Source of the DNA: Lingula anatina
Taxonomy: Eukaryota; Animalia; Brachiopoda
Assembly (NCBI GenBank): GCA_051362555.1
Contig: CM120640.1
Span: forward strand, 4,216,001-4,280,000
DNA length: 64,000 bases
Direction: 5' to 3'
The stretch's first letter is position 1; each line of letters begins with the position of its first letter. A program made the translations under genes and the position numbers. Of the stretch, positions 1 through 49,194 are shown piece by piece. Below the pieces are notes generated by a model. It was not told the DNA's origin. It saw only the letters and a list, made by a program, of their open reading frames with translations, and ran no database searches.

Positions 1-944
1 CTTTAAAGGTAAACAGATGGATTGTTTTGAAAAAGAAGTTCGCAGTTATAGCTTGTAATATATTTTGTATTTTTTTAATGTTAACATCGATGGCCTGTGT
101 GTATTTTTATCGCATTTTAAGATAATTTTTATTACTCCAAATTATCTTTTTGTCCGACACTGGCTGCATGCACTGTTAGACTTGAGTAGCGCAGCATGGT
201 TGGGTATACAAAAAATAACAAGCAGTGAAGTAGTATTGAGCTGGTGCTCGACATGCTTTGAAAATTGCACACTTGGAATTTTATAGTTCATCTTTTAAGG
301 CAAATAAATTAAAGATATTTGATTATTATTATTATTATTATTAATTTATTTTCAATTATTTCCAAATTGAAATAAAATAAGTTTGATGCTTGATCATTCT
401 TCAATTTGAAGTCCTTTGCAAGACTTTGTTAAGCTTTATGTAAAATACTTGTAATGAAAATTTCAAAAACGGAGATAATGCTCAGAGCATGTAATATGCT
501 GACAAGAAATGTTGATGAAATTGGAGGGTTCAACTGTCTTATGATGCGAAGATTGCCATCAGATAACAAACAATGTGGGAAAATACACTTCTGAAAGCAT
601 GATAATATTATTATTTTTTTATACAAACAATTTCATTTATTTTTAGTGAAGTTTCATTAGTTCATTGTATATAACCTATTCATATAATTTTGTGTTAGAT
701 TAAAAGACTTTTAAGTAGGCATTATAATTAGCTTTCATTTTATCTCGTTGGTTTTTTCTGTGGATTAGATTTTTACTGTGTATTGTTTAGGCAATCTGCA
801 AAAAATGGGCAATTACTTTTCTGTAAGAGACATGTTTATGTTCCTATTGATTTTTTCTTGTTGGTATGCATTCAGTGCACTGACTTATATATAAATTCTG
901 AGTTTTTTTTTTTTTTTTGTTCCAGGTTCGCCACAAACAACAAA

Positions 945-8012: not shown

Positions 8013-11000
8013 TTATTCCTGAAGTTCCACATAATTTGCTGGAAAAAGTCCAGATTTGCCATTAAACTCTCCTTTCCACCATCCTTCATCAATCTGAAAT
8101 GTAAAAATAACCACATACAAAACAATATACTGAATACCAAACCAATGTTACATCATCTTACTAATTTACAGAACAAAATTAATAAATCAATGTTTTTCCA
8201 CTGTTTTCTTGCCATAATAAAGGATTCAATATCTACTATAATGATTAAAAATTTCTTGACTGTAATTATCTACATTACCTTCTTTGGTTTATGACTTTCA
8301 AATACCAATGGTCTTGCTCATACTTAACTAACTACTTCATTCATAAAATGAAAAGTCTTATCTTTTAATATGCGCATATGCAAAACTAAGTTAAGATATC
8401 ATTTCTTGTATTCATTACTTACCATTTCAATATTTGTAATAATATCATCTGGATCAAATGTTAGTTCATCATCATCCGCTGTAATAGAAAAGACAATTTT
8501 GTCAATCTAATTGTTGACATATTGTTGCAAACATGTAACAAGAAATACATAATTTCAGTTATGGGTCTTCCACAAAAAGACTGAGTCGCATAAATTTGTA
8601 TAATATTTCTGTTCTATAATCATATCACTTCAATTACTGTTAATATATTTCCACATTGGAGGGTACCATAGTACAAACCAACAAATATAATGGGGCATGT
8701 CAGAATAATGAAAATATAACACAAAATGTGTGCATCATTGAGAGTAACTTTTTTGTGAAATGACCATTATATGATTGTATCTAAATAGAATGCTAAATTG
8801 ATTAAATACATGCAGTATCATTCAAATTACCTGCTTGGTAATCATACAATGCAACAGCTGTGCGACCCTTCCCAGCTGCACTTGGCACATTGTCTGGTGG
8901 TGCTTCGTAATTGTTGTCTTCTTCCTCTTCTTCCTGATAGACAGGTTCTGGCTCTCGTTTCTGGGGTACTTCTTCAGCCTCGTTGTACACTGGCTCTGGC
9001 TCGTAGCTGGGCTGCCCTGCCTCTTGGTATTCCGACTCTTCTGGTTCATAACTGGGCTGCTGGACAGGTTCTGGTTCATACATGGGTTCTGGGGCTTCCT
9101 CTTCTTCTGGCTCTTCCATTGGTGGTTCCTGTTGTTGTTCTTGCTCGCGTCTCCTTGCCTCCTCTTCTCGTTCTCTTGCTCGCCTTTCCTATGGTAAAAA
9201 ACAACACAATAAAGGTTTCTTTCAATTCGTTGTATATATTTTAAATACTGCTCACCCAACCCCCGTCAAAGTACCAAGAAAATGTCAAATATTTAAACCA
9301 AGTATGAAGATGAAAAGGAAATTACCATGAACAATAAATAACAGTTGACAAATGAATCTGTTCACCAGTTCTAACATCAACTACCAATCTTGATTACTGA
9401 TATCTGCAGTCAGGCTGACATCCAGCGGATATACACTGCCTACTGTGACAGTTTTAACATTAAAATGACCATGACAGAATTTTTATTAATTACATGTAAA
9501 TTACATATTCCATGAAGATGAATTATTATTTATTACTTAAAATGAAGATGTTCTTTAAGTTGGAGCTGTGGTTTAAAAACATTTTCCTTAACCCCTGGTA
9601 GCAGTTGAAGCTTTCAAAGACAATTACAACTGCCTTATAACAACATTTTGTTTCTGTTATACATAAAGAACCCACCTCCTCTTTTTTCTTTTGTTCCTCT
9701 CTTTCCCTCGCTTCCCTTGCCTCTCTTCTTGCTCTCTCTTCTTCTGCTCTTTTCCTAGACTCTTCATCATTTTGTTTAGCTAGATTTTCAAATCTAGCTT
9801 TAAGACTTTTAGCACCATCTGAACCTAATAAACAACAACAACTGTCATTCATTTCTCTTTATATCTTTAAATGTCATCACATATACTGCAAATAAGTTAC
9901 ATAATATACAACTGGTGTAACAGTGAAGCTCTAGATACTTTTTATTGGCTTAAATGCCTTTTATGATGGTGCCAAAAAAATCAACATCCCCAAAAAAATA
10001 CCAGCTACATTATTTCAACTTACTCCCAGTTCCTTTCTGTTTCTGATACCCAGAAGTTGGTCCTTTCATATCTTCAAAGGATCCAGCAGACTGAAATCAA
10101 AATACACACCATACAGATTATCAAACATATTCAAAGACTAAATCATAATGCAAGCACAAAATACACAAACACACTTTACATGTAAACCATAAAATAACCC
10201 ACATTCGTTCATTCATGATATTTATAACATGGCATTGCATTACATAGAATTTATGCAGTCACAAAGTAACCACAAACCTGATCTTTTCTGTCTGCCTGCA
10301 CTCCAAATTTGCCGCCATAGCCTTGTTTAGCCTCAGTTTGCGATGGATGCAATTCTGTTTTACTGACATCATCAAAACCCTTGGCAGACTTATCTTGTCT
10401 ATCTGTCTGGACTCCATATTTACCCCCAAATCCAGTGGAATAATCTACACAAAATTACAAAAAAATGTCTGTTTTCATCGTATATAACCAACATAAGAAC
10501 AGTTATCCTGAAATACATATTTTTTTCAAAATAATATTTTTTAAATCAAAAAATGAAAATTTCTTTCATATGCATAAATGATATTAGTTGCACATGAAAA
10601 TCAGAAAAAAAATATCAAAAATACTCCATAAAACATCATTTCATTTGTGTTCAGAGTTTTGTAGAACATCTTCACCATTCATTCATTGATTTTCATACCC
10701 TTCTGAGAGGCATGCTGTGCAAGTTTCTCTTGATGCTCATAACCCAGAGCCGATGCATCAACCCTGTCTTTTTGGATGCCATATTTACCACCAAAACCTG
10801 TTGCATAATCTGTAATCCAAACAATTATCTTTACAGATCAAAAGGGCAAATCATAATTCAATAATCAGGATGAGGATTCATTAATTTATTGCCACTATTT
10901 TCTGCTGCCAATCATTTCATTTGCCACATGACTATAATTAAATAATTTCCAGAAATCAATAACATCATTTTACCATTGCAGTAATCAAATGCACTGATCA

Positions 11001-14000
11001 ATTCTCATAATTAATTTATTTATTTGTATCAATGTGATACAAGGTAAATTTGAAGGATAATGATTGTCTTGATTGTCACCTTTCTGTGAGGCGTGTTTGG
11101 CCAGTTTTTCCTGGTGTTCCCAACCCAGTGCTGATTTGTCAACTCTATCTGTTTGTACACCAAACTTTCCTCCATAACCTGCTGCACTATCTAAATAAAT
11201 CACGTCCAATTCACAGGTAAATTTAACAATTTCAAACTTTCATACTGTTATGGTGCTTATTCAAAAAATAATTCAAAATATCAACGACTCACTCAAGAGA
11301 TATACAATCTTCTAACAAAATAGCAATGTGCAGGTGAAAATGGTGAAAATAAATCACTACCACTTAATGTAAAAGGATGAGGTTAAAAAGAGTGCTCAAA
11401 ATCAAGAGGACACTTTTTGTAAATTTTGAACGCTATTCTACCTTTCTGTGATTCATGTTTTTCTGTTTTGCCTTCATAATCCCAGCCAACAGCAGCCTAA
11501 AAATCAAATCACGTGTTACAATGATGACTGTTTTTGAAATTATTATTGTAATTGCACAAGAAGAGATAACATTTAACATCTACCTCAGCAATCTGTAATC
11601 AAATATTCATATCCCTTGTCATGGGTTAAATGAAATGTTCTATGGTTTTACCTTGTCTACCCTATCTTTTTGTACTCCAAACTTGCCTCCAAAACCTGTT
11701 GTATAATCTGAAAAAAAAATTAAATGTGAACAGTAATTTCAAATATATAATTTTATAACAAGTTGTACAGTCATATTTTGTAATGTATCTTACTTTTAAA
11801 CATTTAACACTATCTAACTTAAAATGCTGTTTTGAAACAAGTGGAAAAATAACTAATTACCACTCGAAAATGTCAAAATGATATCAATAAACAGGACAAT
11901 TTTCTCACCTTTCTGTGACGCATGTTTAGCAGTCTTTCCTTCGTATTCAAAACCAACAGCAGCCTTAAATAGCACAAAAATGTATTAATATTTCCACCTA
12001 CATGTTTGGATAAAAAGCATGCAATTTCCTGCATTTTTTTCCTGGTATAATGCATCTATGATACATATTTCAAATATCTTATTCTTGTCTAACATTAATA
12101 AAAGAAAAAATTCTAGAAATACACTTTTTTTTTGTTCTACCAGAAAGACTCACCTCTGTCTTGATGAGAAAATAATCATGCACAAGATTTTTAATTTATC
12201 TGTGAAGCATTCAAAAATTGAAGTCAACAAAAATTCTGAATCATCCTTGCAAATGCTTCTAGAGACCACCACTAAAATCACTAATTTTACACAGACATAG
12301 ACAAGACTATATTTGAATAATTAGCTGTTAAAAGTGAAACCACTTTACAAACTTAGTTACGGTACCAGGATACTATAGTATCATGAAGACAAATTCAACA
12401 CAGAATGTTGGCTCAACAGCACCAGTTGTCAAGGTCTATATAACAACTTCTAACATGCAAACCAATGTCAGTAAAGGGTCTCACTTTATCTTTTCTATCT
12501 GCTTGAACACCAAATTTGCCACCAAATCCTTTGGATGCATCAGTTTGGCTGGAATGTTTGGCTAAACTTGCTGTATATTCATGCCCCACTGCAGCCTGCA
12601 GAACAGGAAACTCCATAGGTCAACATGCTGAACACTATAATACCAACACCATGGAACACAAAACATTTCTCCCCCCATGCATGGCCAATATGAGCCAAAC
12701 AAATATTAAAAAGCAAACATAATGATATTGAATTGGATATCTATCTTTCCTAAAAAAAGACTGTCCATTTTTTTTCTTTTTAGAAAATCAAGAATGAAAT
12801 ATTTAGAAAATCCAAATTTACTGAAAGAATGAATCACATGATGGTTATAAACTGATTTAACTGTATTTGTAATTTTGTCGATGATCAAATACTGAAGTTT
12901 TGCTGAAACAAAAAACAAACCAAGAATTCAAAATTGTCACGTTACATAAAAAACCATACCCAGAATTTACTCAACAGCCAATATCACACTGGCTTACATT
13001 ACTGTACATGTAACATTAAAAAAAAAGAAATACCATCCCTACATTTAAATTATGAAAGCATGATCGATTATGCTGTGATTGTATCAAGAAATAATAAATT
13101 TTAGATATCCAAGTATGACTGGCTTACACATTCAGAACCTTCCTGTATATATGAGGCATTTCAAAACAGCATTCCTCAATGCCATGCAGGGTAACAGCAT
13201 GTGTAAACTAGTGTATAAACTAAAGCACATAATGAAGGACAAAAAGCTATTTCTGAAAATGTGCAAGGAAGTGAAACCCAACAATATAAAGGAAACAGCT
13301 CTCAAAAGTCATAAATTAGTTTGTTAATGTTTTAACAAATGAAATGTTTGTTAAGTGATGACAACAGTGTCAACTGTACTGAACATATCAACAATATCAA
13401 TAACTGTCGGCCACAATCTTACTTTGTCCATTCGGTCGGTCTGGACTCCATGCTGACCGCCATAACCATAGGATGCTTTTGGACCTGCATCATACTGCTG
13501 TTTCTTAAATGTGGTGTCATCAGTTTGTACCTCCTGTCTAAGCTGCTTCAAACTGTATGAATAATACATAGCATTCACCAATAAGTTTTGAATAAATAAC
13601 AGAAAAATGTTATGTGAAGTGGTAACATCATTTTAACTTCATTCCACACTTGAGCATTTAATAAAAGATGAAGCACTAAAACAACCAGTTATCAGAATGT
13701 TTTTCTTTTGTTCTCTTTGTTTTTACTACATTTTCAGTAATAATCTTAAGACCATGACCACAACACTGTTCACTCAATATACAAATCTATAGGCCACTAA
13801 CAATGCAGGCCTGTAGCCAGGGGGGGTTCGGGGGGGTTCGAAAGAACCGCCCCTTTTGCTGGGAAAAGGTCCATTTGGGTAAAATTTGATCCAGGTACAC
13901 GAAGTTTTTATGGGAAAAGGTTCACTTTTTCAGAAAGAGAACCCCCCTTTTGAAATTGCTGGCTACGGGCCTGCAATGAATCTCACACAACATACCAGAC

Positions 14001-15186
14001 TGATATTACACGCAGATAAATGTTTACAATTAGTAACACTCTACAAATTTCAGTAATTAAAATCTTACTCAATGGAACCTTGGTGACCCGACCCCTCAAT
14101 AGTTTTAGCACCCCATCGTTGTTCTTGCTCACTGACATCATTCTGAAGACACAAAGGAAATTTCAACATTTAATTTAATAGTATGATATATGAAATTAAA
14201 ATACTAGTATGAATAAACCATTTGCAGATGATAAATGTAAAGTCCTTGAGATGACATCACAGAGGACATGAATACAAGGGCTTTTCAGCTCTTCCTTGCC
14301 ATTTAAGCTTGTTTGCGAAAGGAGTAAGAGCCTCTCTTAACCCCCCCCCCCCCCCCGCCCTTTTGAGTCAAAATGGTGATTTGAAGTATTGTAATAAGAA
14401 ATACATTTAGATGAAACATGACTAAGGTAAGCAAAACACATTGCCTTTGTAATAACTTTGTCTTATTATGCCGAAAAAAAAGCTCTCAAATAAGCATTGC
14501 AGTGTACTGTACGCAGTTATCAAGACCTACTGACAAAGTAATCCAACTTGTTTGTTGTAATTTATATCATTGTCCTCTATATCTGTAATGTCATTTTAAG
14601 GATGCTTTTTTGACTTCAAAATCTGCTATTAGTAATAGCCTGTTTCTGTCTGAACTCTCATAAATAATCCAGTAAAACAAAGAAGACTGTAACATACAAA
14701 AAAAGCTGTAACAGAGGTAAAATTTTAGTATTTTGATAAGATAAATACATAAGGGTAGTCTAGAGAAGATCTGAACTTGCTAAAGCTTCGCTTACTTAAA
14801 AGACATGAGGTGCATAATCAGTAAGTAAATTCTTAGCTTCACAGCTCAAGAAAACAATGTTATCTGAGATTTCACAATGATAACACTGTTGACAAGTGTA
14901 ATGGTGCTATAACATGCAAACAGGAAGAGATTTTAAATTATAAATTTATGCAAATTAATGTGACTTGACGTCCATTTCTGATACATTGTGTATTAATTTT
15001 TGTGTACAACAAACAAATAACATTCTTTGATTTTTTTCTTATATTCAGCAATCTCAAGATATGTTTGATTGCTAAAGCATACTTAAGGGAAATTTATAGT
15101 CAACCTACCACAAAATCTGGGTCAGTCTCCCAGTCATCATCATCATCATTAGCAACAGTTTTGATGTCCACTCCAGCCCTCCACAT
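8013..15186 (-). CDS. CTTN: Cortactin (Src substrate, Arp2/3 activator), ~552 aa, 15 coding exons
   Basis: Exons in transcript order: 15186-15109, 14142-14069, 13552-13423, 12595-12485, 11963-11909, 11707-11652, 11496-11442, 11190-11080, 10809-10699, 10444-10278, 10090-10024, 9824-9676, 9188-8831, 8478-8423, 8093-8013. All GT-AG and phase-consistent (1659 nt). N-terminal acidic [10 protein letters not shown] motif, 6.5 HS1/cortactin repeats ([19 protein letters not shown]), coiled coil, Pro/Glu/Tyr-rich linker, C-terminal SH3 ([14 protein letters not shown]...IDEGWWKG...[10 protein letters not shown]). Confidence 0.97.
13806..13973. mobile_element. MITE (non-autonomous DNA transposon) in a cortactin intron
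   Basis: Terminal inverted repeats CAGGCCTGTAGCCAG / CTGGCTACGGGCCTG, flanked by a CAATG direct repeat. Second copy at 18835-18954. Confidence 0.8.
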
Positions 15187-15888
15187 CTTGTCACTGTGAG
15201 TTTGATCTCCAGACTAAAATAAATCAAATCTTGAGTTAAATGTTTGGAAATTCTGCATATCTCCTCTTTGAGAGTGACAGGTTATATGTAACCCAATAAA
15301 ACTGAATATACACTATACAACAAACAATAAATAAAGTTTTTGTTTACACAAACAATACTGGTAGATGTGTGTTGTGCAGCCCATTTTCTACTAAACATGG
15401 AGTGGAGTTAGAGGTATAAAGACCAGGGCTAAGACAGGTTGCTCTCTCTATAATAACATTCGCTTCTTGTGAAGTCACAGCACTAAATGTATGTACCAGT
15501 ACAGTGCAGTACAAATTAATTAAGCTATCCTACAACTTAAATGGCAAAACAATATAAACTATGACCCCTGTACCTTTACCTAATGAACATTAAAACATAT
15601 ATTTATATCATTTTAAAAGCCGACAAACAATCTAAATTTAGTGACCAACAATCATTAACTGAGTCAGTGACTAAATGATTCATTCATGAAAGAGACAGAC
15701 TTGAATGTTAAACACACCACCCGGTGTACCAAACACTTCCTCACTATAATCGCCATAAGCCGTGTATAAATCAAAATTTCGATACAATATGCAAGTGGGA
15801 GCGATTTAAAGAAGCCATCTGTTCATACTATTCCATGCAATTTGAACATTCAAATGCGTTTAATTAAAACACGTCGACTTTACTTACT

Positions 15889-19967: not shown

Positions 19968-20150
19968 ATGACAATGGGCTGGAAGTTCACAGGGTCAATA
20001 GTTGTGGCAGTGGTCGCTGTCTTTGTGTATTGGAAGGTGTTCTCTGGACCATCAAGAATTGTTGAAATCTTAGATGAGGAGTATGATTATATCATTGGTG
20101 AGAAGAATGCTTAGACTTACATAGCTTATAAAATATCGGTGACTGAATAT

Positions 20151-20231
<81 letters not shown>

Positions 20232-23200
20232 TTTAATTTATTAGCCATCTCCATTTTTAAAAAACAAGCTGATGTTATTTGAATTATAGTTTTCTCTTGA
20301 TAGGGCTACGCTGATTTTATTTTAAGGATTTTAAGTGATTTATTGTTAGAGACCAGTTACTTTAAGATTCCCCAGCAGATTGAAAAATGTGAAATCTGTA
20401 GCTGTGTACATAAATTCAGTTGCCATTCTAAATTTATCCAAAAATCAAACAAAGGTACAAAAGCATCTTTCACTTCCTGCACAGAACTATTTGAGGGCAT
20501 ACCTGTGAATAAATGTGTTTATTATATATTTGGGAGAAAAGCTTTTACAGGTACACTTTCAAAAGTTTTTGTAAAGAGTAAAAAGTTTAATTTTTTTTTC
20601 TCAGCATGATCCATTTGATTCTGTTGACTTGATAAACCCAAATGTTTTTGGCTATAACTTTCAAGCTCCCTCCACAGCATTTTCCTCATCATTGTATACT
20701 TGTATATAGTAAAACCAGATTTTTTTTTAGTTGGTGCAGGATCTGCAGGCTGTGTGTTGGCCAACAGATTGTCTGAGGATTCAGATTCCAAAGTACTGCT
20801 AGTGGAAGCAGGAGGGGAGGAGAAATGGAACCTGTTGATTGACATCCCCTTGTTAACTCCAATGACACAACTCAGTGATATTGATTGGCAGTTTAAGACA
20901 GTTCCCCAGCAACATGCCTGCAAAGGAATGCATAACAATGTAAGGATGCCATGTGTTGTTTCTTTATTAGGTACAGTTGTATTTATATGTTGTAACTCAG
21001 ATTACATTGGTCTTTATATTTTTTGTCACTATATGGACATGTCTTTTGTCTTTGTTTAGGAGACAGATAAGAAAAAAAATATCTCACAAGGTTATCAAAA
21101 TTTCCAGAATTCGGTAATTTCTGTCTGAAGCTTGATTGAATGTTACAGAAAGGTTGCATTAATAACTATATCATACTAAAGTAGATCTGGTTTAAAAGCA
21201 GCTAACTACTCTATCTGGGTCACAGCAACAGAAAGCATAAAAATTAACATCTTAAATTTCATAATATGAAGATATTTTAATATATATTTCCAAGCAATGT
21301 CGGTGGCCAAGGGGTAAAGTCCTAGGGGGCAGCAGTTGTCTTAATTACATGATTTATATTCGTGGGAGTCGACATGACTTTGACCAATGGGCTGCCAGTG
21401 GCTGTGAAGGATGGGGCTACGATGACGTTCTTCCATATTTTATGAAATCTGAGGATAACACAAATGCAGAATATGCAAATTCAGGTGATAATGCAGAAAA
21501 AAAATTTTTTCAGTGAAAAGTTTAAAGTGCACTCTCCTAGACAAGAAATAGATAAATGAACCCACAAAAATGCTTACCTTAGACTATTTGTAATTGGTAT
21601 CATATTTTAATTTTATAGGAACCAGTGCCCTGTTTGCCTAAGGTGATTTTAGATTATCTTGTTTGTGGTATAGCACAAAATTGGTAGTAACTCATATAAT
21701 TTGTTTTTAAGGTTTTCACGGTAAGGGAGGCCCTCTGACAGTGTCAGATTCCAACGTAACAGAACTGACATCTTATTTTCTTGAATCTGCCAAAGAGCTC
21801 AACTACCCAGTGATAGATGTCAATGGAGAGTCACAAATAGGTAAGTGCTGGTGCAATGGTAATAGATCAATATGAACTGTGCCTTTGAAAAATACCAAAT
21901 ATTAGTACTAGTAGGTGTGTGGTAAAGAAGGAATAGCATGTCATTAAATTAAAAACTTTTAATTTAGACCCAAAAGTGTCAAAAGTTCAAATATTTTGAG
22001 AGTTGTATTCCAGAGTTGTAACTGCTTGCAAATTAAGGCCTTTTCCACAATTTTATCAACTAATTTACATATCATGCCATTTAACTTAACTTTTAAAACA
22101 AACAAGTTATAATTCAGCATAATTCATATATACATACTGCATATGACTGATAACCTAAAAAATTGATGTCCACAGGATTTATGCACTCCCAGGCCACTGT
22201 GAATAAGGGTGTGCGCCAAAGTACTGCTAAAGCTTTTCTACGACCAGCAATGGATAGAGAAAATCTCCACATATCCATCAAATCACATACAAAAAGGGTG
22301 AATATTCACTATCTATTTACTTTGCAAGAATGTGTGTGCATGTAAGTGTGTGTGTGTGTGTGTGTTCTCTAGGCTCAGTTATAAGTGACATGTGGATGAT
22401 GGATGTCAGTTTTAGCAATGTCAGAAACTGAGGGTGCTGTATAAAACTGTCGTGAAGTGCTTTTCTTGGATATATCTTTTTATTCTCAGGTTCTGATTGA
22501 AAACAAGAAGGCAGTGGGTATAGAATTTATCAAGGATGGAACTCTCCGGAAAGTCAAAGCAAGAAAGGAAGTAATTCTGTCTGCAGGGTCAATTGGTTCA
22601 CCCCACATACTGCTGCTGTCAGGTGTTGGGCCCAAAGAACATCTGAGAAAATTCCAGGTAAAAGAATTTCTACAGCTGTGGCTTAGTCTGGATAACTATC
22701 CCATCCTTTGGATTGAAGAAAGAAAATATTTTTAAGTATCAGTTGCTAGATTTGCAGTAGCAAAATTTAATTGGTTGAAAAGATTTTGCAATAAGCATGA
22801 AATAACAATACTATTATTGTTGGAAACCATGTATAATGTAATTGAATTGAACCTGCAGATATATTCAGTTCAACAAATAAGAATGAGAAAAAAAACATTA
22901 CTAATCATTATTAGATCTCTCTCTCTGATCAGATGTAAATAAAGTCTACTGTATGTAGCAGTTATTATTATTATTATTACTATTATTACTATTATTATTA
23001 TAAAATATTTATACACAGATCCCAGTAGAGGCTGATCTCCCAGTGGGTGAGAACCTAGAAGACCACATCATGACTGACATTGCCACGTTCCTAATTGATA
23101 AACCTCTGAGCATAACAGAGGACAAAGTGCTGTCTGTTTCTTCCTTTTTTGATTACCTGCTTTATGGTAAAGGTATGGTGTCTGAGGACAACATGTTTGT

Positions 23201-26200
23201 TTGTTTGTTTTTATGTGTATGTTTTGTGTTTCAAGCATTTTAAGTGCATAGCTGAGTATTGATTAAGGTCATCAGGGAGGGTTATAATTAAATTGGCTTT
23301 GCTGTATTCCTGCATTACCTGTTTATGACTGAGGTTTTCCAGCTGTCGTGTTTTGCTAAAATTTAATATCATGTTGAAGAATACAGTTATTAATTATGAA
23401 GGATATAGAAATATTTGCCATGTATCAAATTACCCAGAAAATTGAATCAGTTTCTTGCTGATAAATATCTTATTTGACAGAAAATTGAATACACCTATTT
23501 GATGTTCAACAGTGACTGTTTTTTCATAAATGTAATTATCTTAAATATGTTCTGTTGTGTAAAAATTTCCAATAAAAATGTTGTAAAATCTGCTTTAGAA
23601 AGTGTCTTATTAGATCTAATAGGATTGTTGGATTAAATTGAATTACCTACCTGTTAGATTCCTATTTGATTCCTGTTGAAAATGATTTTAGTTATGTCCA
23701 TTAAAGTTGAGTCAGTTTTTTTAAGTACAAATTTTCATGGGTTCATATAGGGAATAATATTCCATTTCTTTTATAGATGACTGTAGGTTTCCTATATAAT
23801 TTTTTATTGGATCCAATAGGAAATTTTTTAAATAGCTGGTGTTTCTAGATTTTGTTCTAAGTCAAATTATGGATTGACCTTAATGTATGCTTAGCTATCT
23901 CTTTAAGTTGAAGTCAATTTCTTTAATTTGTCTTAGTTATAATCATCTTTATGTTTTCATCTTTTAAATTTTTCAATTTATAATTTTTTAGTCAGTCTTC
24001 ACATTTTTAAGTGTATTTGTAATACTATGTTAAACTTTCTAACATTTTGTAGTAATTTTAATTGTTATTAAAAATGATCTTTTTTATACCTCTTAATACA
24101 TATATAACCTTTGATAACCATATATTATGTACACTCTGCCTAATACATTAACCTTCTTCCATGTACATGCTTACACTCTAAGGGACCATTCCCAGACTCT
24201 ATCGACTAACTATGGATCGATCTATCTCCAAGGGTATTCTTGCTAAAGTGCAATCAACTTAAGCAGCTTATATGTCTGTCATGCCTATCGAAGCTGCTAG
24301 GGGGTAATTAATTATCATTCAGCAGCTGCAGTTGGCGTGCCAGACATCAAAGCTGCTTAAGCTGAAAGCAATTTAACAAGAAACCCCTTGAAGATGGATT
24401 GATCCTGTTAGATCGATCTAGATATAGGAACACAGTCTAACTTGCATGTCTGATGCTGTTGGACTAAACTTGGCATCGGTACTTACCAAAAAAAAAAAAA
24501 AAAAAACTAATAAATAAAACCAAGGCATTCTTCACCTTATCCACTTTGAGAGGTCCCAACAGAGCAAGAGGGATTTTTACTCCTTTACACAAGTTCATTT
24601 CTCCAAAAGTTCCCTCCCTAACTTGGCCATATCATGCAAAGGGCAGGGTCAGTTAAGGTGACTCTCTTACACAATAGGCTAGCTATTTAGTTGTCAATCT
24701 CTCAAAGTGCGTACAGGTCAAGATAAGTGTACCCTTCAATGTGAAAAGGGCCTTACTATACAGTTACGAAGTTATCTAATGTACACCATTCTTATGCTGT
24801 TGGCTGCAATTCCAGCTAAGGTAAACACAACTAGCTTTTGTCAAATAGTGTCACCTGAAAAAAAAAATACATCATCTCCTCCAGAGTTTAATCCACAATG
24901 TATTAAAAATCCACTTTTGGCATGGGAGTATTGGATGTCCTTAACCAACTTGATCTCTGCTGAAACATTAAATTTAATAACTACTGACACTAAGATCATT
25001 TTTGTCACAACTTTCCATCAGTCCTATTGTCTGGGTATTCAAAATAATGTAGCTGGGTATTTAAAATAACGTAACTGTAACCAACCCTTTTTTGCCTGGT
25101 TTCCAATGAAATAAACACAACAAATGATAATTAAAGATGCAGTGTATTTTTTAGTCTAAATGTTGCTGCCATAAATACCACATGAGAAACCATGAAGATG
25201 ATTTAGAGCTCAAGTGCCTTCTGTTGTAGGTGTGATAGGGTCTAATGGTGTAGCAGGGAGTGGGTTTGCACCATTAAAACATGTCACTCTAGCTGGTGGC
25301 AAGAATCCTGAAGTAGAGCTATTCATGATATTAGGAACATACGGGAGCTCTGGAAAAAAAGATCTTAATCCCTTTTTTCAAGCAATGCATTTTAAACCAG
25401 AGGTACAAAGGTGTATGTTTATGGTAACACAGCATGGATGTTTTTTTTTTCCTCTGAGCAATTTGTTTGTCTACTATGCCTCTTGTTACGTCAATTAAGG
25501 CTTATTGACAGATAAGTTTCCTAACCCCCTCTCTCTGGATGCATGCTTATTACAAGGCAGCTGGAATGGAAATTGCAATTACTTTACTTGATGTAACTAT
25601 GTCCCTGGTTAATAATTGCATAGTGAATGTCTTTCAGTATTAGTTGTTTTTCTATGTATGTCACCAGAATTTCTCCGAGTTGATGCTGGAATTGTTCGTT
25701 TTGCACATTTCATGTCATGCTGTTGCTTTTTAATTTGCACTTTAACATGCTGGCATGACTCAAGGTACTAAACAAAATGTCACATAGATCAGCTTGTTTA
25801 TAAATAGTTTTACTGGTCTTATTTGTTGGCATTTTCTGCATTTAGCATATTTTGATGTATTTCAATCACCTTCAAAAAGAAGGCAAATGTTTGCACATCA
25901 GTTGGAAATAGTTAATCCACTAGCTATAGCCTAGGTGGTTGAGAAGTCAAGTTGCAGTGATATAAAAAAAGTCACCATTATGCTTTTGCATTCTTTTAAA
26001 TGCTGTGTCTTTTCTTTCATTATTTTTTATTTATTCATTATTATTATTTTGATTTTTCCTGTACTCTAATGCTGCTATAGAAATCTGTTAATATCTGACA
26101 AACAGTGTGAAAATAGGCCTAATGAGGTTTTATACTAAAAGTATAACCTTCTGTTTTTATTGCCCTTATAAATAACAGGCTATTTTATGTGGGTGGCTTC

Positions 26201-29200
26201 TTGATCTATTTTTATATTTAGGATATGATCTTGAATCCATGTCTGGTTCTCCTCTTATTCAAGGGTTGTTTACCTCTATTGCCGGTGTGGATGGTCTTGC
26301 CTTTGTCCATTTAACAGAGTTATCACTCAGAGCTGTCCCTTCAACAGAGCTGATGTTTGGTGTTAGTTTAGTTGGTGCAGATAGCTATAGTAAAGGGATG
26401 TTTATAAGCCTGCTTGGTCTGCAGCAGGGGGTAATATTCTTTTTTTTTTTTTCACTTTTGCCAATTAGATGTAATATGTACTAATTGCCTCTAGTCTTTT
26501 TTTTCAAAAAGTTTTATTAAACTTCTAGATATGTATATAATACTATAATACAAAAAAATGCAAAAGAAAAAAATGCAAAATACCTAACTGAAAACCTCTT
26601 TCACACACACACACAAACTCATTTGTTAAATACATGCATGTATTAAATGTCTAACAGTATAGTGCAAAGGCATATTTCAGGCACGTATTACATATGACAT
26701 TGCCATGTATAAACTTTATGCACCCATATTAGAAGCTTATTACACCTTTGCAAAAACATAAGCATCTTAATTTACAGGTCAATATTAAAAACATTGCAAA
26801 ATATAAGCACACAGCTTACTTGAAATAACTGAAGCATGAAACTGTCTTGATTCTACTTAGAAACTAGTGTCTGCTGTAGATTATATTATTGGAATCATTC
26901 TGCCTTAAGACTTCATATAATCTGTACTTACTTTTTGTGGCTAAAAAGGGGCTTAGATTCTTATATTCAATATAAAGGGCACAAAACCCCTCTGAGGGTA
27001 TGGTTATTAGCAGGTCTGTTACATTTAGGGTGGCATTCAACCAGTGGCATTGATGGGATTGCATTTTTGAAGAAAGCCAGACAACCTTCTGAAATAGTAC
27101 CAAGTTTGCAGTTGTTTATGTTCATGGGACATGCTGGGGTGACATCTAAAACAGATGTTCCCAAATTAACAAATATGGCTAAAGAGGTAAAAATGACAAT
27201 ATTATAGGATTGTCCCCGAGACATATTTGTCAATACCCTATCAAAAATTACCAGATCCAATTGAATGTGAGAGTTAGGTACATTTTTTAAAACCCTGATA
27301 ATAAAAAAAAGGGGGGTAGCATTTTGAAGAGGAAAAGGTAACTTGTTTGTTTTCAGACTAGTCTTGGTTTACATTTGTAAATTCTATAATCTGTTTTGGG
27401 GAGTTTATGTAGCTATCTAATAATATTTTGTGGGAACGAGGCTGTAAGTGTATGGAGACTGAAGTAACTAATTACAGGACTACTGAGTACAAGTTAATTT
27501 AATTAAATTTATTCCTATACTGGTGCATACATTTTTATGATCTTGTACACTAATTAATGCATTACACTTTATGCAAATCAGAGTAAATATGTCCATACCT
27601 TAAGTTTAACAGTTAGTATAATGTAAAGGACAATGATAAGACAACAATTGATAACATCTCCCATGTTATGACATGGTCATAATTGTTATCATTTTTATGA
27701 AGGATGTCATTATATTATATGGAGTCTCCTTGTAACTTGTAAAATTACAATATTGTTTCTTTTTCACTCCAAACCCCAAATATTTCAGGCCAAATCTGAT
27801 TTAAAGAGAGTTTTATGTACAGAAAAGTCTCTCACCTAGAGTTTCATGTTTTCCTACAAGCTTCTTCAGAAACTCAGTGGAAGAGAGTCCTGAGCATGAG
27901 CATCAGGAAATGTAAATTATCTAAACTACAGCCTTGTTATTATTTTGAACCTAATTAAAACACTTGTAAAATAGGGAGTTGATTAAGGGATGTTTAAGGG
28001 GCTCAAACATACACACACAGACAAAAAAACAAAAAGGACAGAAAAACAAATTGCGAGCAAAAAATCTTGTTTTCCATATAAGCAGTTTTCTTACATTTAG
28101 GGTTACCATCAAATACTGGTCTGGAAGGAAGTGCTTTTTTTGACACAGTAAGAGAAGTTTCTGATGCAATGTCAGGAATGCAGTTACATCTTTTTGCCAC
28201 TCATTTAGGGAATGATCCACATAACCTATTTGTGGACAATGCAAATTTCAGAACTGAGGTAAAAAAATAAGTTGGTATTTATTGCAGAAAGTGAGAGATT
28301 GCTGAGGAAATTTTTTCATCAGAATTGAACAGAATCATGCAATTGTGGGTGCAATCAAGATTTTATGGTAAAGGGTAATTTTGTCATAATCTCTATTTCA
28401 AGTAGACCACCCATTAAAAATCATCCATTATTAACATGATCTCAAATTTTCAAATTTAATTCATTCACTTTAACTAATTCTTATGATTGAATTTAATTTG
28501 CTTCATGAAAGAAAGAAATCATAGCTTCTAAAATTGAATGTTAAACACTGTAAGCTTAATATTTTATGTGAAATAGTAATATATGTCAAGATTTTTGAAA
28601 TACGTTAATTTTTTTTCAGAACATTGTCAACAAACACAGCACATGACATGGCTATCAATTGGTACTAGTTTTTACCATTATCATGTAGCCTACCACCAAA
28701 AACAACTCTTACTCAAATACAATTAAAGGGATAAAAGCTCTTCATTTTGGCTGGAAAAGTGCTATAAAACAATACATCCTAGGGTAAACAATGATTTTCC
28801 CATACTTAACCAGTGGATAATGATCCTTCCCACATTCAAAGTTAGTTGATTTTTTAAAATGTGTTGTAGTGATAAATAATTATGGAGGGTACAGCCATCT
28901 ATGAAGGTCCATGTGGTTGGATGGCAAGCACAGAATTTCAGAATAATTGTGAGAACTGCCATTGTGGTGGTAAAATGGAATTGATTATATTTCTTTGTGT
29001 TGTTTGCAATGTATTTATTGTGGAATTTTGAAAATCTTTTGAATAGTTGTTATTCCTTTAAAAATAAAAAGTCAGTTCAACGTTTTTATATGATTTTTAT
29101 GTTGACTATTATTGTTAACATTATTATTACATGTGTCAAAAAGGAAAATTGCTTGATATTGCCACTTTTTTTATTTATTATTATTTTTTTTTTTTTTGGG

Positions 29201-31925
29201 GGGGGGGCGATGAGATTAAAAAGAAGAAATGGGTACCTCTGAAGCTAATAAACTAAGCAGGTGCCCCCTGTGCCCCCCTCCTCTGCTTTCCACTATCTTC
29301 CCTTAATGAAACATTAATGTTTTTAGAGCAGATTAATAACACTTATATTGATGCTTTGCAAAATATAACATTGTGACACTGATTTTTTTTTTTTATTTTT
29401 TATTTTAAGGCTTATATGATGGATTATTTGTAAATCAATATAACATTAAAAGTTGAAGGCTAGAAATTTGAATGTGCACAGGATTTTAAAGTAGATATGG
29501 TGTTGTTTGGTTCAATTTTGTGTTTATATTTGGAAGAGAACCCTGTACTGAGTATAAATAAGTTAATTCAATTAGATTTATTCCTGTACTGGTGCATACA
29601 TTTTTATGATCTTGTACACTTATTGATGCATTATATTTTATGCAAATCAAAGTAGATATCTCTATTACTTAAAGTTCACAAATTAGCAGGAGTAAAGGAC
29701 AGTGATAGACAAATGATAACATCTCCCATGTTGTGACATGAGGTCGCACTTGTTCTCATTTTTATGAAAGATTATTTGTCTCCTTGTTGCTAGTAAAATT
29801 GTAACTTTGTTTCTTTTTCACTCCAAACCTCAAATTTTTCAGGCCAAACTGAGAGTTTTATGCACAGACAGTCTCTCACATACCTTGAGTTTCATGTTTT
29901 CCTACAAGCTTCTTCAAAAACTCTGTGGAAGAGAGCCCTGTACATGAGCATAAGAAAATGTAAATTATCTAAACCACAGCCTTGTTATTATAATAATGAA
30001 CCTAATTAAAACACTTGTAAAATAGAGAGTTGATAAATGGACTGTTTAAGTGTCTCAAACACACACTCACAAAAGCACTCAGGCAGACAAAAAGCAAAAA
30101 GGACAGTGAGCAAAAAATTGTGAGCAAAAAATCTTAGTTTTCATATAAGCAGTTTTCTCACATTCAGGTTTACCATCAAATTGTGGTCTGGAAGGAAGTG
30201 CTTTTTTTGACACAGTAAGAGAAGTTCCTGATGCAATGTCAGGAATGCAGTTACATCTTCTTGCATCTCATCCAGGAAATGACCCATATAACCTGTATGC
30301 GGCTAATGTAAATTTTCAAAATGAGGTAAAATTAAGTTGGTATTTATTGTAAAAATGAAAGATTACCAGTGAATTTTTTTTCATAAAAAATTGTGGGTGC
30401 AATAAAGATTTTCAGGTAAATGTTGATTTTTTTCTCTAGATCTCCATTTCAAGTAGAACATCATCTAAAAATCGATTGTTTACTTTATCCCAAATTTTCA
30501 GATAAAACATATTTACTTTTATTCACACTTCTTTGATTTAGTTTAAATGTTCCATGAAAGAAATGAATCATAGCTTAAAAATTAAATTTTGAACACTGTA
30601 ATCATTGATTTAATATTTTATGTAAAATAGTAATATATGTCAGGATTTTTTAAATAAGTTGATTTTATTTCAGAACATTATTGTCAACAAACACTAACAT
30701 GACATGGCTATCAATTGGTACTAGTTTTTACCATTATCATGTAGCCTACCACCAAAAACAACACTTACTCAAATACAATTAAAGTGATAACAATGCTTCA
30801 TTTTGCCAGAAAAAGTGACTTACCAATGGTAAATAACATTCAGAATTAGTCAATTGTTTTTCTTTTTTCTTTAAGTATATTTTTTGTAATAATCTCTCAA
30901 GGGATCATTATGGAGGATAGCCATCTGTGTCCATGTGGTCTGATGACAAGCACAGATTTCAAAATAATTGTGATAACCGCTGTTTTAGTGATAAAATGGA
31001 ATTTATATTATATATTATATAATTATGTTAGTTTTCTTTGTGTTGTTTACAATTTATTATGGAATTTTGAATCTCATATGAAGAGTTGTTATCCCTTTAA
31101 ATATAAAAAGTCAGTTGAACATTTTCAAATGATTTTTATCATTAACATTATTTTTTATTTTATTATTATAAAAAGAAAGTATCCGTAGTTGGCAATGGTT
31201 GGGTTTTCATCAATCTCCCTGTGAATTTCCATTTAAAATTTTGGAAGATTTTTGTAGTTGTTGTGTGGACATTTTGTGACCAGTGCTTTATTTTGCAAGA
31301 TTTTGGTGCACACCATCACTGGTGGATCTTTGATTGTGTTAATAAGGGGATATAACAAAAAAAAAAAAAAAGAAAAACCAATAGATTTTTATTTCATTTG
31401 TCAATAATTAGGAAAAAATTGGTTAATATTTTCACTTTTTCAGTGGGGGAGGGGTAAAAAGGAGGAAGTGGGTATCACTCAAGCTAACATACTAAGCAGG
31501 TGCACCCTGTACCCCCCACTCTCACACACCAAACCCACCCACAGATCCACCATTGACTTTATTTTGCTTGATTTTTAAGTTGCATTTTTAACTGTAGGTA
31601 TGGTATTTGGTGTATTGTAAAAATTGGTTGGGTGTTGTTAACATGGTAATTTTGTTGTAACCATGGTCTCTGCTCTTTCCACTATCTTCCCTTAATGAAA
31701 CATTAATGATTATACAGCAGGTTAATAACACTTGTGTTAATGTTTTATAAAATATAACATTGTGACAATAACTTTTTGAAACATTTTAAGGATATTATGA
31801 AGGAGTTTTTGTTATTTCAAACATTAAATTGTTAAATTGGTTAAAGTGAAAGACTAGAAATTTGAATGGTTTTCTAAAAGGAGATATGATATTGATTCAA
31901 TATCATTGATATCATTGATTCAATT

Positions 31926-31963
<38 letters not shown>

Positions 31964-33176
31964 TTCACAATGATAATGCATGGTTTATTTTATTGCTTTT
32001 GCCAGGTATTTGAAGCTATACATGGGGGCAGAGCTGGAATGCATGGCTTCTCTATCTTTCCCATTTTATTGCACCCTAAGAGCAGGGGAACCATACGCTT
32101 GAAGAGCACGGACCCGTTTGAACACCCAGAAATAGACCCCCACTATCTGGAACACCCTGATGATGTTAAAGTGATGGTGGAAGGTAAGACAAAAAGGGTT
32201 GAAAGATTTACTGATGTAATCCTTCCCAAAAGTCATTGATTTTTAAACATTTATTTTTATTTGTTCTTTTCTTTTTTTTTTAGGTAAACATTGTCACACT
32301 TCTTTCTGTATGGTGTCTGTATATTTGCCATGTTTGCTGTCTAATATTAAAGACATATATCTATATAATGCATCTTTGTTACTCATTGCAGCAATGAAGC
32401 TGGCTATCAAAGTAGGCAATACAACAGCATTTAAGAAGATAGGAGCCCAGTTGTCAGACAGAGTACTTCCTTCCTGTAGCCACCATAAGCCACTGTCAGA
32501 TGACTACCTGGCGTGTTACATTCATCATATCACTCTGACTGTGTATCATCCTACCAGTACATGTCGTATGGGGGCACCTGCTGATGCCATGGCAGTAGTG
32601 GACCCACAGCTCAGGTAATACACTGTTCATCTCAACTAATGGCAGATTACTATAAAGCTCAAGTAGCGTGTGGCATAAAAATTTACAGTTTTGACATTTC
32701 AAAGGTCTGATTTATTTTTTGATATAGAATGTAATGAAAACTTTGCGAGAAAAACAATCACCAGAGGAATTCCACAATTTACTGCATTTGAGCAGAATTT
32801 TGTTTATTCTCATTTAAAACTTTCTAGACCATTAGGATACCAAATAAAATTCACAGACCAAGTCAAGTTACTTAGAATTGTCTGTGGCTGTGTCTCACAA
32901 AATGCTTCAGATGGGGGGAGGTTACTAGACCACACTTTTTTGAGAATAGAAAGATTGTCAAATTACATGAAAGAAAGTTATTTAAAAGTTAAGTATTTAA
33001 ATTTCAACTGTGTGTTGCTATTGTTTTCCAGAGTGAAGGGTATAGCAGGACTGCGTGTGGCTGATGCCTCTATCATGCCTCATGTTGTATCAGGAAATAC
33101 CAATGCCCCTACCATCATGATAGGAGAAAAAGCAGCCGATTTGATCAGGGGAAAGAAAATGGCAAACAAAAAATAA
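19968..33176 (+). CDS. GMC oxidoreductase (glucose dehydrogenase [FAD, quinone]/choline dehydrogenase-like), N-terminally anchored, ~601-606 aa; exon 8 present as alternative copies
   Basis: Constant exons 19968-20097, 20731-20939, 21295-21484, 21712-21840, 22176-22297, 22490-22657, 23019-23172, [one variable exon], 32006-32183, 32392-32614, 33032-33176. Motifs: [21 protein letters not shown] (FAD Rossmann fold), [59 protein letters not shown], catalytic His ([11 protein letters not shown]) and Asn ([17 protein letters not shown]). N-terminal [18 protein letters not shown]. Probable non-coding exon at 19664-19810. Confidence 0.95.
20154..20227. repeat. (TC)n microsatellite
   Basis: Seen directly. 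Confidence 0.95.
24184..24437. repeat. ~250 bp imperfect palindrome (foldback/MITE-like) in the GMC intron upstream of the variable exons
   Basis: Left arm ggatcgatctatctccaagggtattcttgctaaagtgcaatcaacttaagcagctt..atgtctgtcatgcc is the reverse complement, with mismatches, of right arm ggcgtgccagacat..aagctgcttaagctgaaagcaatttaacaagaaaccccttgaagatggattgatcc. Confidence 0.75.
25230..25402 (+). CDS. GMC variable exon 8A (173 nt, phase 1 to 0)
   Basis: ctgttgtag|GT...CCAGAG|gtacaa; open: (G)[57 protein letters not shown]. Confidence 0.85.
26264..26430 (+). CDS. GMC variable exon 8B (167 nt, phase 1 to 0; alternative in-frame acceptor possible at 26222)
   Basis: cttattcaag|GG...CAGGGG|gtaata; open: (G)[55 protein letters not shown]. 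Confidence 0.75.
27029..27186 (+). CDS. GMC variable exon 8C (158 nt, phase 1 to 0)
   Basis: ttacatttag|GG...AAAGAG|gtaaaa; open: (G)[52 protein letters not shown]. Confidence 0.85.
28101..28258 (+). CDS. GMC variable exon 8D (158 nt, phase 1 to 0); absent from the ORF track
   Basis: ttacatttag|GG...ACTGAG|gtaaaa; open: (G)[52 protein letters not shown]. Confidence 0.85.
30168..30325 (+). CDS. GMC variable exon 8E (158 nt, phase 1 to 0); recent duplicate of 8D, absent from the ORF track
   Basis: tcacattcag|GT...AATGAG|gtaaaa; open: (G)[52 protein letters not shown]. Confidence 0.85.
31317..31555. mobile_element. MITE-like element inside duplication unit 2
   Basis: Inverted termini CACTGGTGGATCT / AGATCCACCATTG. 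An internal actaagcaggtgc..ccctgt segment is also left as a remnant in unit 1 (~29250-29280). Confidence 0.5.
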
Positions 33177-33623
33177 ATGATTTGTTATCAACATCTGTTG
33201 TATTTTTGATACAATATGTACTTAAAAAGTTCATTCAGATATTTAAGAGAAGTTTTAAACCATATGCGACATTTTTGCTCAGTTCCGAAGAAAACCAGTG
33301 TTATTTTAAGCAAGTATTGATATGAGTCCTCCAGATGTCATGCGCATACAATCAATTTTTCAGTAACACAAAGATATGAACTGTCTTGAAGTGGAAACTT
33401 TTAAATATTATATTAGCTAATGATATAGTTTTATAATCAGAGCTGACAGTTTGATTTCATTGCTTGTTCATTTACCACCATTTTCGATACATTCCATATA
33501 TGTTATTGTAATCTTTGTTACTTGAATCCATATTTTGATTTTTACTCTCAGTAAGTAGCTATTATAATTTGGTATATTTCACTCGATGCTACTTAATGGA
33601 TTTTACCTCAAGCACAAAGGTTT

Positions 33624-44149: not shown

Positions 44150-47100
44150 TAATGATGTGAGGTAAGGTTAAGGTTGAAAGCTGTGCACCGGGAATGGTGT
44201 ATTAGAAAGCAATATGACAGTAACACGCAAACTTGGTAGGTACGCACTGTTGTGCGAAAGACCAATATAAATCACTTAGCAGAAAATAGCCAGAAGAAAA
44301 ATACCCATGGATGAATTATGCCAGGTCTTATTCTTTGTCCACTCCCATTAGTTATAGGCTGTCATTATTTCTGATCCGCCCCCCTCGCCTTCAAAACCCA
44401 CGAAATTTCGCTATATTTTACACTAAGTCGCCAGATTTCTTACGGATGATCCCATTACGAGCATTGTCATAACGAACACTTAGGAACATTTTATTTTTGA
44501 TCGACGCTTAATGTCTTTTAAAGGATATCCTTACTCATAAATACTGCATTGGTTTTTTAGGCAAAGAGTGCGTTCTTCTTCAGTTGTTTGAGAAACAGGA
44601 CCATGTTAGACATAGGAAACACTCACCATTGGCATCTAGATTCCCAAATTTGGCCATATCATCTTCTGTCAGTACTCCATCTTTATCAAAATCACCCACT
44701 TCAAAGAGTGCACGAGACCACAGTGGGCGAATTCTGCTATCCAGTTTGACCAGATATCTCTGTATCTCACTGTGCGTGACTTCATCATTGTCTGAAAACC
44801 CAAAGAATAATGGGTATTGGCCAATACCAATTTCACATGCAATCAATTCATAAAATTATTCTTTTAGGCCACGCAACATTGGGTGAGTTTACGACACCAT
44901 CTTGTGCAATGCTAAATTTTCGGGTATTATAAGAAAAGACAGGACATGCTAAAACTTACGGTCAAAGTCCATGTTAGCCACTATCCCAACCCATTCCAGT
45001 TTAGTGAGGATGCCATCGTTATTGGTGTCCACGGCATCACAGATCAATTTCCCAATCTCTCTTGCTGTAAGCTGAGGGTTTGCTCCATTAACAGGGGTAC
45101 AATCCCTAAAACAATGTGAAATTCAACCTTTCTGAAGGTATTTGCAAGTATGGCTTTGTTGTGTTCTTGGACGTTGATGAGGAACCAAAATAGTAGCATT
45201 TTATGAATCTGATAAATACCATCAGAGCGATCTTTTGTATTCTTAACGGGAAACCATGTTTGTGCATTTCAAAATCATCCCACATTGAACATAAATCCAT
45301 CCTAATTAAAAAAAAATTAAAAACATCTCAACGGATTTAAACAGACCCCTGAAGGACGAAAAGCAATACACCGAGAGAGAGAGAGAGGGAGAGAGAGAGA
45401 GATTTGATCATGACCACAAGTGCTTACATTTTTGTTGTCATGGAGACAACACAGCAGCCCACGATCATCATGTTTAACTTCATCTTCATTCTGCAGTTTG
45501 TGGTACTTAAACAGAATTCAGATATCAACTTAATACATGAAATACCTCGTTGTCACACGCATGTTGATTTTGAATTCACGTAGCATTACATTTTAAGTAT
45601 TACTTATAAAGGATGGATTAAGCTTTCTTTCTTAATAGCAATGCCAGACTTAAGAGATCATAAGAGAACAGGAGAATCTATTAAACAAAAAATCACCGCT
45701 ATGTAAGCGGGCACATAACTTAGAGGATAACCTGTAACCATTCGCGATCAAAATTACTCTGAGAAAGAGTTGACGCATTACAAAATAATACACTGATAAA
45801 ATTCCCTCTAAATAAGCGTTAGTCTCTATGTTTGGTTTAACTTTAAAATACATCAATTTAATTCTTGAAATTAGATGTATAATTTTAACGTAACACGGAT
45901 TAGGCAAATGAAATATATCATAGATAAGTAATATGACAACATATATCAAATAGAAATAAAATTTCGATACTTGAAAATAGGTAAAATATGGATAACATTT
46001 AAAAACTCACCTGATATCGTGGATGTTCACAACAGCAATGTTTATGAATATGATTCTGCGACTGAAATGACAACGAAAAAACACTCCACTCTCTACACGA
46101 AAAAAATTTTTGAGGGTCACATACGGGTAGCCCTACTTTGGAAGTATTCGGTGAACGTAGACACTAAAACCGGCTGTGGCTTGAAAGGTATGTCATACAG
46201 ACATGTCCGGCTTATAAGAGTGAGACTTAAATTATTACAAAAAGAAAATTTTGCCAATAACATATGTTAAAGACATACATGTAACATACATGTATACCTA
46301 ACTATAAGCATATAGGACGTTGAGATCACGTAGGAATCGAGGCTCAAAGGATATGACGCGAGATTCCAGCATAAATTTTACATGCATAAGGTAACAGATA
46401 ACAGACATATAAAAAGCAATATTGAAATGCAGCAGTGTCACATATACATATACTAGTACATGCCAGTATAACATCTTGTCACATTCAACACTACCATGTG
46501 CATTTGAAAAACGGAGTTTATTATACTTTTTTAATACTTTCAGGTAAACAGTAAACGTGTGTCCCGGAAAGCTTAAGCACAAAGCTTGTGTAATTTTGTC
46601 TCATGTTTTCAAATAGCAAGAAATATTTCGTGTTTATTTGAGTTGGGATTCATACCGCGTCCGATTATTTATCAATGTAAATAGGTGGTTTTTGGTCCGC
46701 CAGACGGACCACTGGACATTGAGACCATTCTCAGAGCCCAGAAAGCCAGACAAATTACCTATGCAAGATTGAGGGTAAAAGCTATCCAGCAAAGAGTAGT
46801 AGTCCTTTTTTCAGTCCTATATGGGTGAAAATCAAGGATCCTATGTCACCACCGTATTTGGCTATTAAAATAATTCCACACAAGATGTATATAATCGTGG
46901 TTAAAAATAGCAAGATAGGGTCACCAACCAAAAAGTGGGGGGTAAAGCCGGGTTGGCCAGTGATTAAGCACTACAACGCCTTTGTTCGGATTTCAATTTT
47001 ACTGAATGAATCAGTATTATGCTCTAGGCAATGCCTTGCTGGGTAAGACAAATCATCAGAATAGATTATAGTAGTACCCCAAGAAGCTAATGTAAGTCGA

Positions 47101-49138: not shown

Positions 49139-49194
<56 letters not shown>

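Follow-up and report, generated by a model that had tools for sequence, protein, structure and literature searches.

In Dscam1, exon choice works through pairing of docking and selector sequences in the RNA, and an oyster alternative oxidase is said to carry a duplicated exon. To our knowledge, animal GMC oxidoreductases outside insects are almost uncharacterised. Among the closest described systems, the Anopheles gambiae gene GMC-beta4 has four tandem duplicated alternative exons, two isoforms of which are supported by expressed sequence tags (Iida et al, 2007; PMC1891103), and Dscam1 has four clusters giving 38,016 isoforms (PMC7954323); GMC function in molluscs is largely unknown (PMC10543319). 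Here, we describe a GMC oxidoreductase gene of the brachiopod Lingula anatina, located in a 64,000-nt stretch of GenBank assembly GCA_051362555.1 (contig CM120640.1, positions 4,216,001 to 4,280,000; hereafter the window, whose first letter is position 1). Within one of its introns, five intact exons homologous to one another (8A to 8E) follow each other in tandem. They are likely spliced one per messenger RNA (mRNA), and each is predicted to remodel about half of the pocket for the substrate, which would give isoenzymes with the same chemistry and different substrate ranges. We put the probability of this reading at roughly 70%.

The gene is LOC106170227, matched at 100% by constant exon 10, and its 11-exon model has AG/GT at every junction, each constant exon being single-copy in the window (tblastn). 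The protein is a full GMC oxidoreductase by Pfam, motifs and fold: all five isoforms scanned match GMC_oxred_N (179.8 bits, curated cut-off 23) and GMC_oxred_C (~141.6 bits, cut-off 24.6), the dinucleotide motif GxGxxG is present as GAGSAG at residues 45-50, and the predicted fold (predicted template modelling score, pTM, 0.93) has template modelling (TM) scores of 0.80-0.83 when compared with CvFAP, choline oxidase and alcohol oxidases. His532 and Asn576, which we take to be the GMC catalytic pair, are common to 87 and 86, respectively, of 90 animal homologues drawn from the best 120 matches listed, with fused, partial and some other rows left out. The product is likely a membrane-anchored or secreted flavin adenine dinucleotide (FAD) alcohol oxidase or dehydrogenase, as a putative assignment. 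The features of the locus are as follows, with R451-equivalent denoting the position aligned to R451 of CvFAP:

19968-20097, + strand: constant exon 1, with the start codon and a hydrophobic N-terminal helix, a predicted signal anchor at residues 3-25
20731-20939, 21295-21484, 21712-21840, 22176-22297 and 22490-22657, + strand: constant exons 2-6, FAD-binding fold with the GAGSAG motif; AG/GT ends and a RefSeq protein match
23019-23172, + strand: constant exon 7, ending in phase 1; in-frame alternative donor after 23166 in RefSeq X9/X10
25230-25402, + strand: 8A, a 173-nt cassette exon with Phe at the R451-equivalent; RefSeq X2/X3 (P0004) identical in the exon; two strands and a helix in the model
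26264-26430, + strand: 8B, a 167-nt cassette exon with Met at the R451-equivalent; open and in phase; in no RefSeq isoform; z 6.4 to 8C; three divergent reads in one of four runs
27029-27186, + strand: 8C, a 158-nt cassette exon with Phe at the R451-equivalent; RefSeq X6 (P0001) identical in the exon; no reads in four of four runs
27481-31168, + strand: tandem duplication, the unit with 8D at 27481-29129 and the unit with 8E at 29546-31168; intron flanks 82-88% identical over ungapped columns
28101-28258, + strand: 8D, a 158-nt cassette exon with His at the R451-equivalent; RefSeq X5/X8/X10, one residue different; modelled
29843-29959, + strand: mini-exon of RefSeq X1 before 8E, 117 nt, open, AG/GT ends; likely a cryptic exon
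30168-30325, + strand: 8E, a 158-nt cassette exon with His at the R451-equivalent; RefSeq X1/X4/X7, two residues from X7; acceptor 15 nt upstream in RefSeq X4
32006-32183, 32392-32614 and 33032-33181, + strand: constant exons 9-11, with the remainder of the substrate sheet, the catalytic residues His532 and Asn576, and the stop codon

The five cassettes had been proposed from the sequence alone, as open exons of 173, 167, 158, 158 and 158 nt with AG/GT ends, and all were found exactly as given: they lie in the one intron between exons 7 and 9, have a length of 3n+2, and share the same phase. With a single cassette, 8A to 8E in turn, the open reading frame amounts to 606, 604, 601, 601 and 601 residues, while skipping the cassette leads to a stop at 369 residues and each of the 26 combinations of two to five cassettes stops at 436-441 residues, ahead of the catalytic His. 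The claim that one cassette yields an enzyme of ~601-606 residues and that zero, two or three break the frame stands; the four-cassette forms, which regain the frame by length, likewise truncate at 436-441 residues. Exactly one cassette is present in each of the RefSeq isoforms X1 to X10 (10 accessions, 8 distinct proteins), five different cassettes being used in all: 8A, 8C, 8D and 8E as listed above, and a sixth copy, 8F, in X9. RefSeq isoform models are usually built from RNA-sequencing junctions. Four of the window reading frames can be compared with a RefSeq isoform, and the differences amount to 1, 1, 2 and 3 residues, so that the window likely represents a different assembly or animal from the RefSeq source; within the exons themselves, 8A, 8C, 8D and 8E are intact in this second assembly with 0-2 residue differences.

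We scored the 205 open stretches of the intron with a hidden Markov model (HMM) built from 92 non-Lingula homologues, and the five cassettes took ranks 1 to 5. The scores of 8D, 8E and 8C (30.9, 24.6 and 20.1 bits) are clearly above the best of 640 control stretches (8.1 bits), and those of 8B (9.1) and 8A (7.4) lie near that control level, so that 8A and 8B have to be carried by other evidence. Such evidence comes from RefSeq X2/X3 for 8A, from the three reads for 8B, and from pairwise comparison, with z of 4.7 for 8A-8C and 6.4 for 8B-8C, neither of which was reached in 500 shuffles; homology is weak in some other pairs (z 1.8 for 8A-8B, 2.0 for 8A-8E). Types A, B, C and D have 10-15 of 52-55 residues in common (~20-28% identity), which is as far apart as the segments of different mollusc genes, and despite this divergence they retain the frame, the phase and the G-x-x-F and [QE]-L motifs. 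8D and 8E are identical at 40 of 52 residues and form a recent pair; there are therefore four deep exon types, not five, which refines the original prediction of five mutually homologous exons. A sixth exon at 24518 was considered and rejected: the open frame 24518-24660 scores 7.2 bits, which is chance level, and a stop precedes any phase-0 donor at the expected length. It could be a decayed copy, not distinguishable from chance. The intron before 8A also holds a ~217-nt imperfect inverted repeat at 24201-24417, 75% complementary and resembling a miniature inverted-repeat transposable element.

The duplication carrying 8D and 8E measures 1.6-2 kb, and between types A, B, C and D the flanks are no longer alike, except for 88 nt across the C and D acceptors. 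The two halves of the 8D/8E pair differ in divergence (Fisher p 0.0001): the first 90 nt are 95.6% identical, with 0 synonymous changes in 20.6 sites, and the last 68 nt 73.5% identical. The RefSeq X9 (P0009) cassette 8F is of the D/E type and absent from the window, where its best match reaches 86.5%; it looks like a mosaic, with a D-like start and an E-like end. Together, the 8D/8E pattern and this mosaic look suggest that the copies have undergone gene conversion or unequal crossing-over, and not positive selection. 8F also suggests copy-number variation of the cassettes or an uncollapsed allele; as it is missing from the window, the cassette number differs between the assemblies unless 8F is such an allele. 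That D, E and F might all be alleles or haplotigs, or that the cassettes are the remains of decayed whole-gene paralogues, we regard as very improbable. The 1.6% heterozygosity of Lingula (PMC4595640) and the absence of 8F from the window, together with its D/E-mosaic look, would agree with an assembly artefact, but the 8D and 8E flanks differ by 12-18%, far over the allelic level, both types occur in two assemblies, and the window contains one copy of every constant exon, so that an artefact could account for 8F only. An exon tree of 56 columns (six Lingula rows and 29 of the 92 others) left the six exons in four places without resolving them, 8A joining bacterial rows via a long branch, and a single origin of the Lingula cassettes is not rejected (approximately unbiased test, p-AU 0.24); the array is therefore neither dated nor grouped by the tree.

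In AlphaFold models made for the 8D and the 8A isoform (mean predicted local distance difference test, pLDDT, 93.2 and 94.0), the cassette in both cases contributes a helix and two strands (375-382 and 392-401) to the substrate domain, the adjoining strands of the sheet coming from constant exons 7 and 9. The 8D model superimposes on CvFAP with a TM of 0.83. We compared eleven active-site positions named for this enzyme in PMC13097135, according to which the substitution Y466A enlarges its site and broadens its substrate scope. Six of the eleven (G431, C432, R451, V453, G462 and Y466) align to the cassette, by a manual residue count with an offset of +60 and with the G462/Y466 part gappy, and the remaining five to constant exons, so that about half of the pocket would be swapped. 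At position 397, equivalent to R451, the residue is Phe, Phe, His, His and His in A, C, D, E and F, respectively, and Met in 8B; His is found here in 51 of the 90 animal homologues and also in BetA. Over the same homologues, the cassette is the most variable of the eleven exons, with 2.74 bits, the other nine exons of the enzyme ranging over 1.05-2.00 and exon 1 reaching 2.50. The proposal that the array diversifies the substrate-binding domain thus agrees with the models and the CvFAP alignment as regards location in the substrate sheet, and it applies to part of the pocket only, as the exon 7 and 9 strands, His532 and Asn576 are constant.

The array would have arisen in successive rounds of exon duplication, ancient ones for A, B, C and D, and recent ones, with turnover still under way, for D, E and F. 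One cassette would be picked per mRNA, and nonsense-mediated decay would enforce this at least in part by clearing wrong combinations, all of which end the protein ahead of the catalytic His. With the family-typical His397, the D, E and F isoforms would bind polar alcohols, and A, B and C, with Phe, Met and Phe at this position, would suit more hydrophobic ones; we infer that the isoforms would take different substrates. In a bolder version, the part played in molluscs by clusters of several GMC genes would fall in Lingula to an expanding, gene-converting array of 5-6 pocket cassettes in one gene, with tissues changing cassette by alcohol class and individuals varying in cassette number; we offer it tentatively, as somewhat more doubtful than credible.

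Several results weigh against the pocket-cassette reading. On the structural side, loop 381-390 has a low pLDDT, the pocket map relies on sequence alignment to a 33%-identical photoenzyme and not on distances in a FAD model, and much of the cassette variation, in the loop and helix, may be at the surface. In an alternative, all cassettes are used singly and tune the reactivity towards oxygen versus quinone, the stability or oligomer state of the protein, or its binding of partners. The loop and helix make up half of each cassette and are its least conserved part, the catalytic His/Asn and two sheet strands are constant, and a survey of homologous exclusive exons counted 260 events linked to protein interaction, next to 235 linked to the binding of small molecules (PMC7954323). 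However, the strand positions equivalent to C432, R451 and V453 of CvFAP vary too, including His versus Phe/Met at 397, and we hold this tuning role to be unlikely.

On the splicing side, 8B occurs in none of the ten RefSeq isoforms, and these models are automatic and likely contain some noise (the X1 mini-exon; a donor shifted 6 nt and an acceptor 15 nt upstream). We observed that six reads of RNA run X4 carry the letters of the side of the duplication on which this mini-exon lies, the 8E side. Reads from four RNA runs of three studies, all labelled as this species, were aligned to 26150-28330, a segment with 8B, 8C and 8D and without 8A, 8E or a constant exon, and gave 8, 13, 16 and 9 reads per run out of 9.5-12.4 million records each, mostly intronic. 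At this shallow depth, the few reads include no splice joints, and 8C has zero reads in all four runs. Over 8D, the depth is at most 2 and continuous with the intron, with reads on the opposite strand in one run. 8B has three reads in RNA run X7, while the bins flanking it are empty; these reads are ~90% alike to the window and carry an in-frame 6-nt deletion, the frame being kept over the part read, and four of the seven listed changes are synonymous and three replacement (p 0.07 for a synonymous excess). They are no proof of splicing, because they are cut at a repeat beside the donor; their source may be a second copy resembling 8B or a Lingula lineage that has diverged. The earlier claim of one cassette per transcript is thus supported by the frame logic and the ten RefSeq models, while junction reads were not observed and 8B is in no RefSeq isoform. 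Nine of the 15 intronic read differences checked are letters of the 8E-side duplicate. The reads of run X7 on 26264-26430 and 27442-27556 are ~90-95% alike to the window, well past the level of heterozygosity given above, and this divergence possibly reflects additional paralogues or a cryptic species that goes by the same label.

The missing junctions and the lack of 8C reads would also be expected if the cassettes were relics of birth and death, with one or two functional and the rest spare copies spliced as noise. The different cassette number of the two assemblies, the unannotated 8B and the 8D/8E comparison (pN 0.116, pS 0.198, ratio ~0.6), which bears no sign of positive selection, go in the same direction. 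Yet types A, B, C and D all keep an open frame, the phase and the motifs at ~20-28% identity and with diverged flanks, the second assembly has A, C, D and E intact, and the 8B-like copy retains its frame over the part read, and we consider such relics quite unlikely.

The original prediction of a Dscam-style cassette was too strong, as there is one cluster of 5-6 exons with no docking site above shuffled controls. The best docking/selector pairings (-17.7 and -15.5 kcal/mol) fall within these controls (-15.4 to -18.9 and -14.4 to -16.9 kcal/mol) in a crude scan of six shuffles a side on one genome, a further point against the pocket-cassette reading. Spliceosome incompatibility and steric hindrance are judged by donor type and intron length; as five of five cassette donors start with GTA and the introns between cassettes measure ~600-1900 nt, both are unlikely.

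Elsewhere in the window, an open frame at 732-2126 (+ strand) matches Pfam leucine-rich repeats and has likely signal and membrane helices. A multi-exon gene at ~8800-15200 (- strand) with repeated exons (repeat families D3 and D5) presumably resembles cortactin, the one fragment scanned having no Pfam match. Exons at 44583-45122 (- strand) have EF-hand-like D-x-D-x-D-G motifs, with no Pfam match on the fragment scanned, and ~47700-60100 (+ strand) encodes a chitin synthase (Pfam Chitin_synth_2 in 58100-60097), whose preceding exons presumably resemble a myosin motor domain. Two direct copies of 155 nt, 99% identical, lie at 60729-61042.

In mollusc and annelid GMC genes, no swap of the cassette segment was seen in same-gene isoform sets, 13 of 15 being identical there and two unreadable. 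A profile of the five exons retrieved only four Lingula clusters among 2115 candidates, with no 8B protein and no other brachiopod, which is weak evidence. The search of 50% representatives returned no relative above 54%, the ten looked up including other animals and one non-animal label, and the segment HMM found no adjacent duplicate segments in 340 proteins, the eight double matches being at least 340 residues apart in fused models. No description of the array was found in the literature searched, to which subscription papers, supplements and MetazExp, which may list the event, did not belong; the accessible main text of the Lingula genome paper contains neither 'GMC' nor 'oxidoreductase' (PMC4595640). 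The array is real and present in automatic annotation, without description in the literature searched. That no internal exon array was known in a GMC gene agrees with this search, which returned no precedent, but the accompanying view that insect GMC diversity comes from whole-gene clusters overlooks GMC-beta4 with its four tandem alternative C-terminal exons (PMC1891103), and this gene and coq-2 lower the novelty.

Five or six natural isoforms differing only in ~53 pocket residues offer a clean experiment on GMC specificity, and the array is a clear case of exon duplication possibly replacing gene duplication in a metabolic enzyme, with a copy number apparently still changing. If the cassettes do form a pocket library, their exon borders would mark an evolution-tested swap module for the engineering of GMC biocatalysts.

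The closest proteins are mollusc and annelid GMC enzymes of the 'glucose dehydrogenase [FAD, quinone]-like' type (41-53% identity over aligned rows), in which the same segment is most variable. In contrast to Lingula, which has one locus only among the best 120 matches, at least 5-7 whole-gene rows each are found among these matches for Ostrea, Argopecten, Mizuhopecten, Mercenaria, Ylistrum and Saccostrea echinata; this fits, without proving it, that exons stand in for gene copies. Like Dscam1, the array has tandem homologous exons, likely used one per mRNA and predicted to vary a binding surface, but it is a single small cluster with no combinatorial diversity and no docking element above controls. 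As in homologous mutually exclusive exons and tandem duplicated exon substitutions generally, where variable residues are often tied to functional sites, the changes concern a predicted functional site, whereas PKM, PFKP and CRMP are discussed as two-way switches and the Lingula array is larger, with an apparently variable copy number (PMC7954323; PMC9741552). The coq-2 exons 6a/6e of helminths, annelids and molluscs are likewise homologous and internal in an enzyme core, and mutually exclusive as is likely in Lingula, with 134 nt each (3n+2) and a switched substrate (PMC7434440); they are two exons of a prenyltransferase with the switch shown experimentally, compared to 5-6 exons of four deep types with a predicted role in Lingula. 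GMC-beta4 is also a GMC gene with tandem alternative exons, proposed there to vary the substrate-binding region behind a shared FAD-binding start, but its alternatives are C-terminal exons on one shared 5' exon, exchanging the C-terminal part as a whole, whereas Lingula would swap 52-57 internal residues and keeps exons 9-11 and the catalytic pair constant (PMC1891103).

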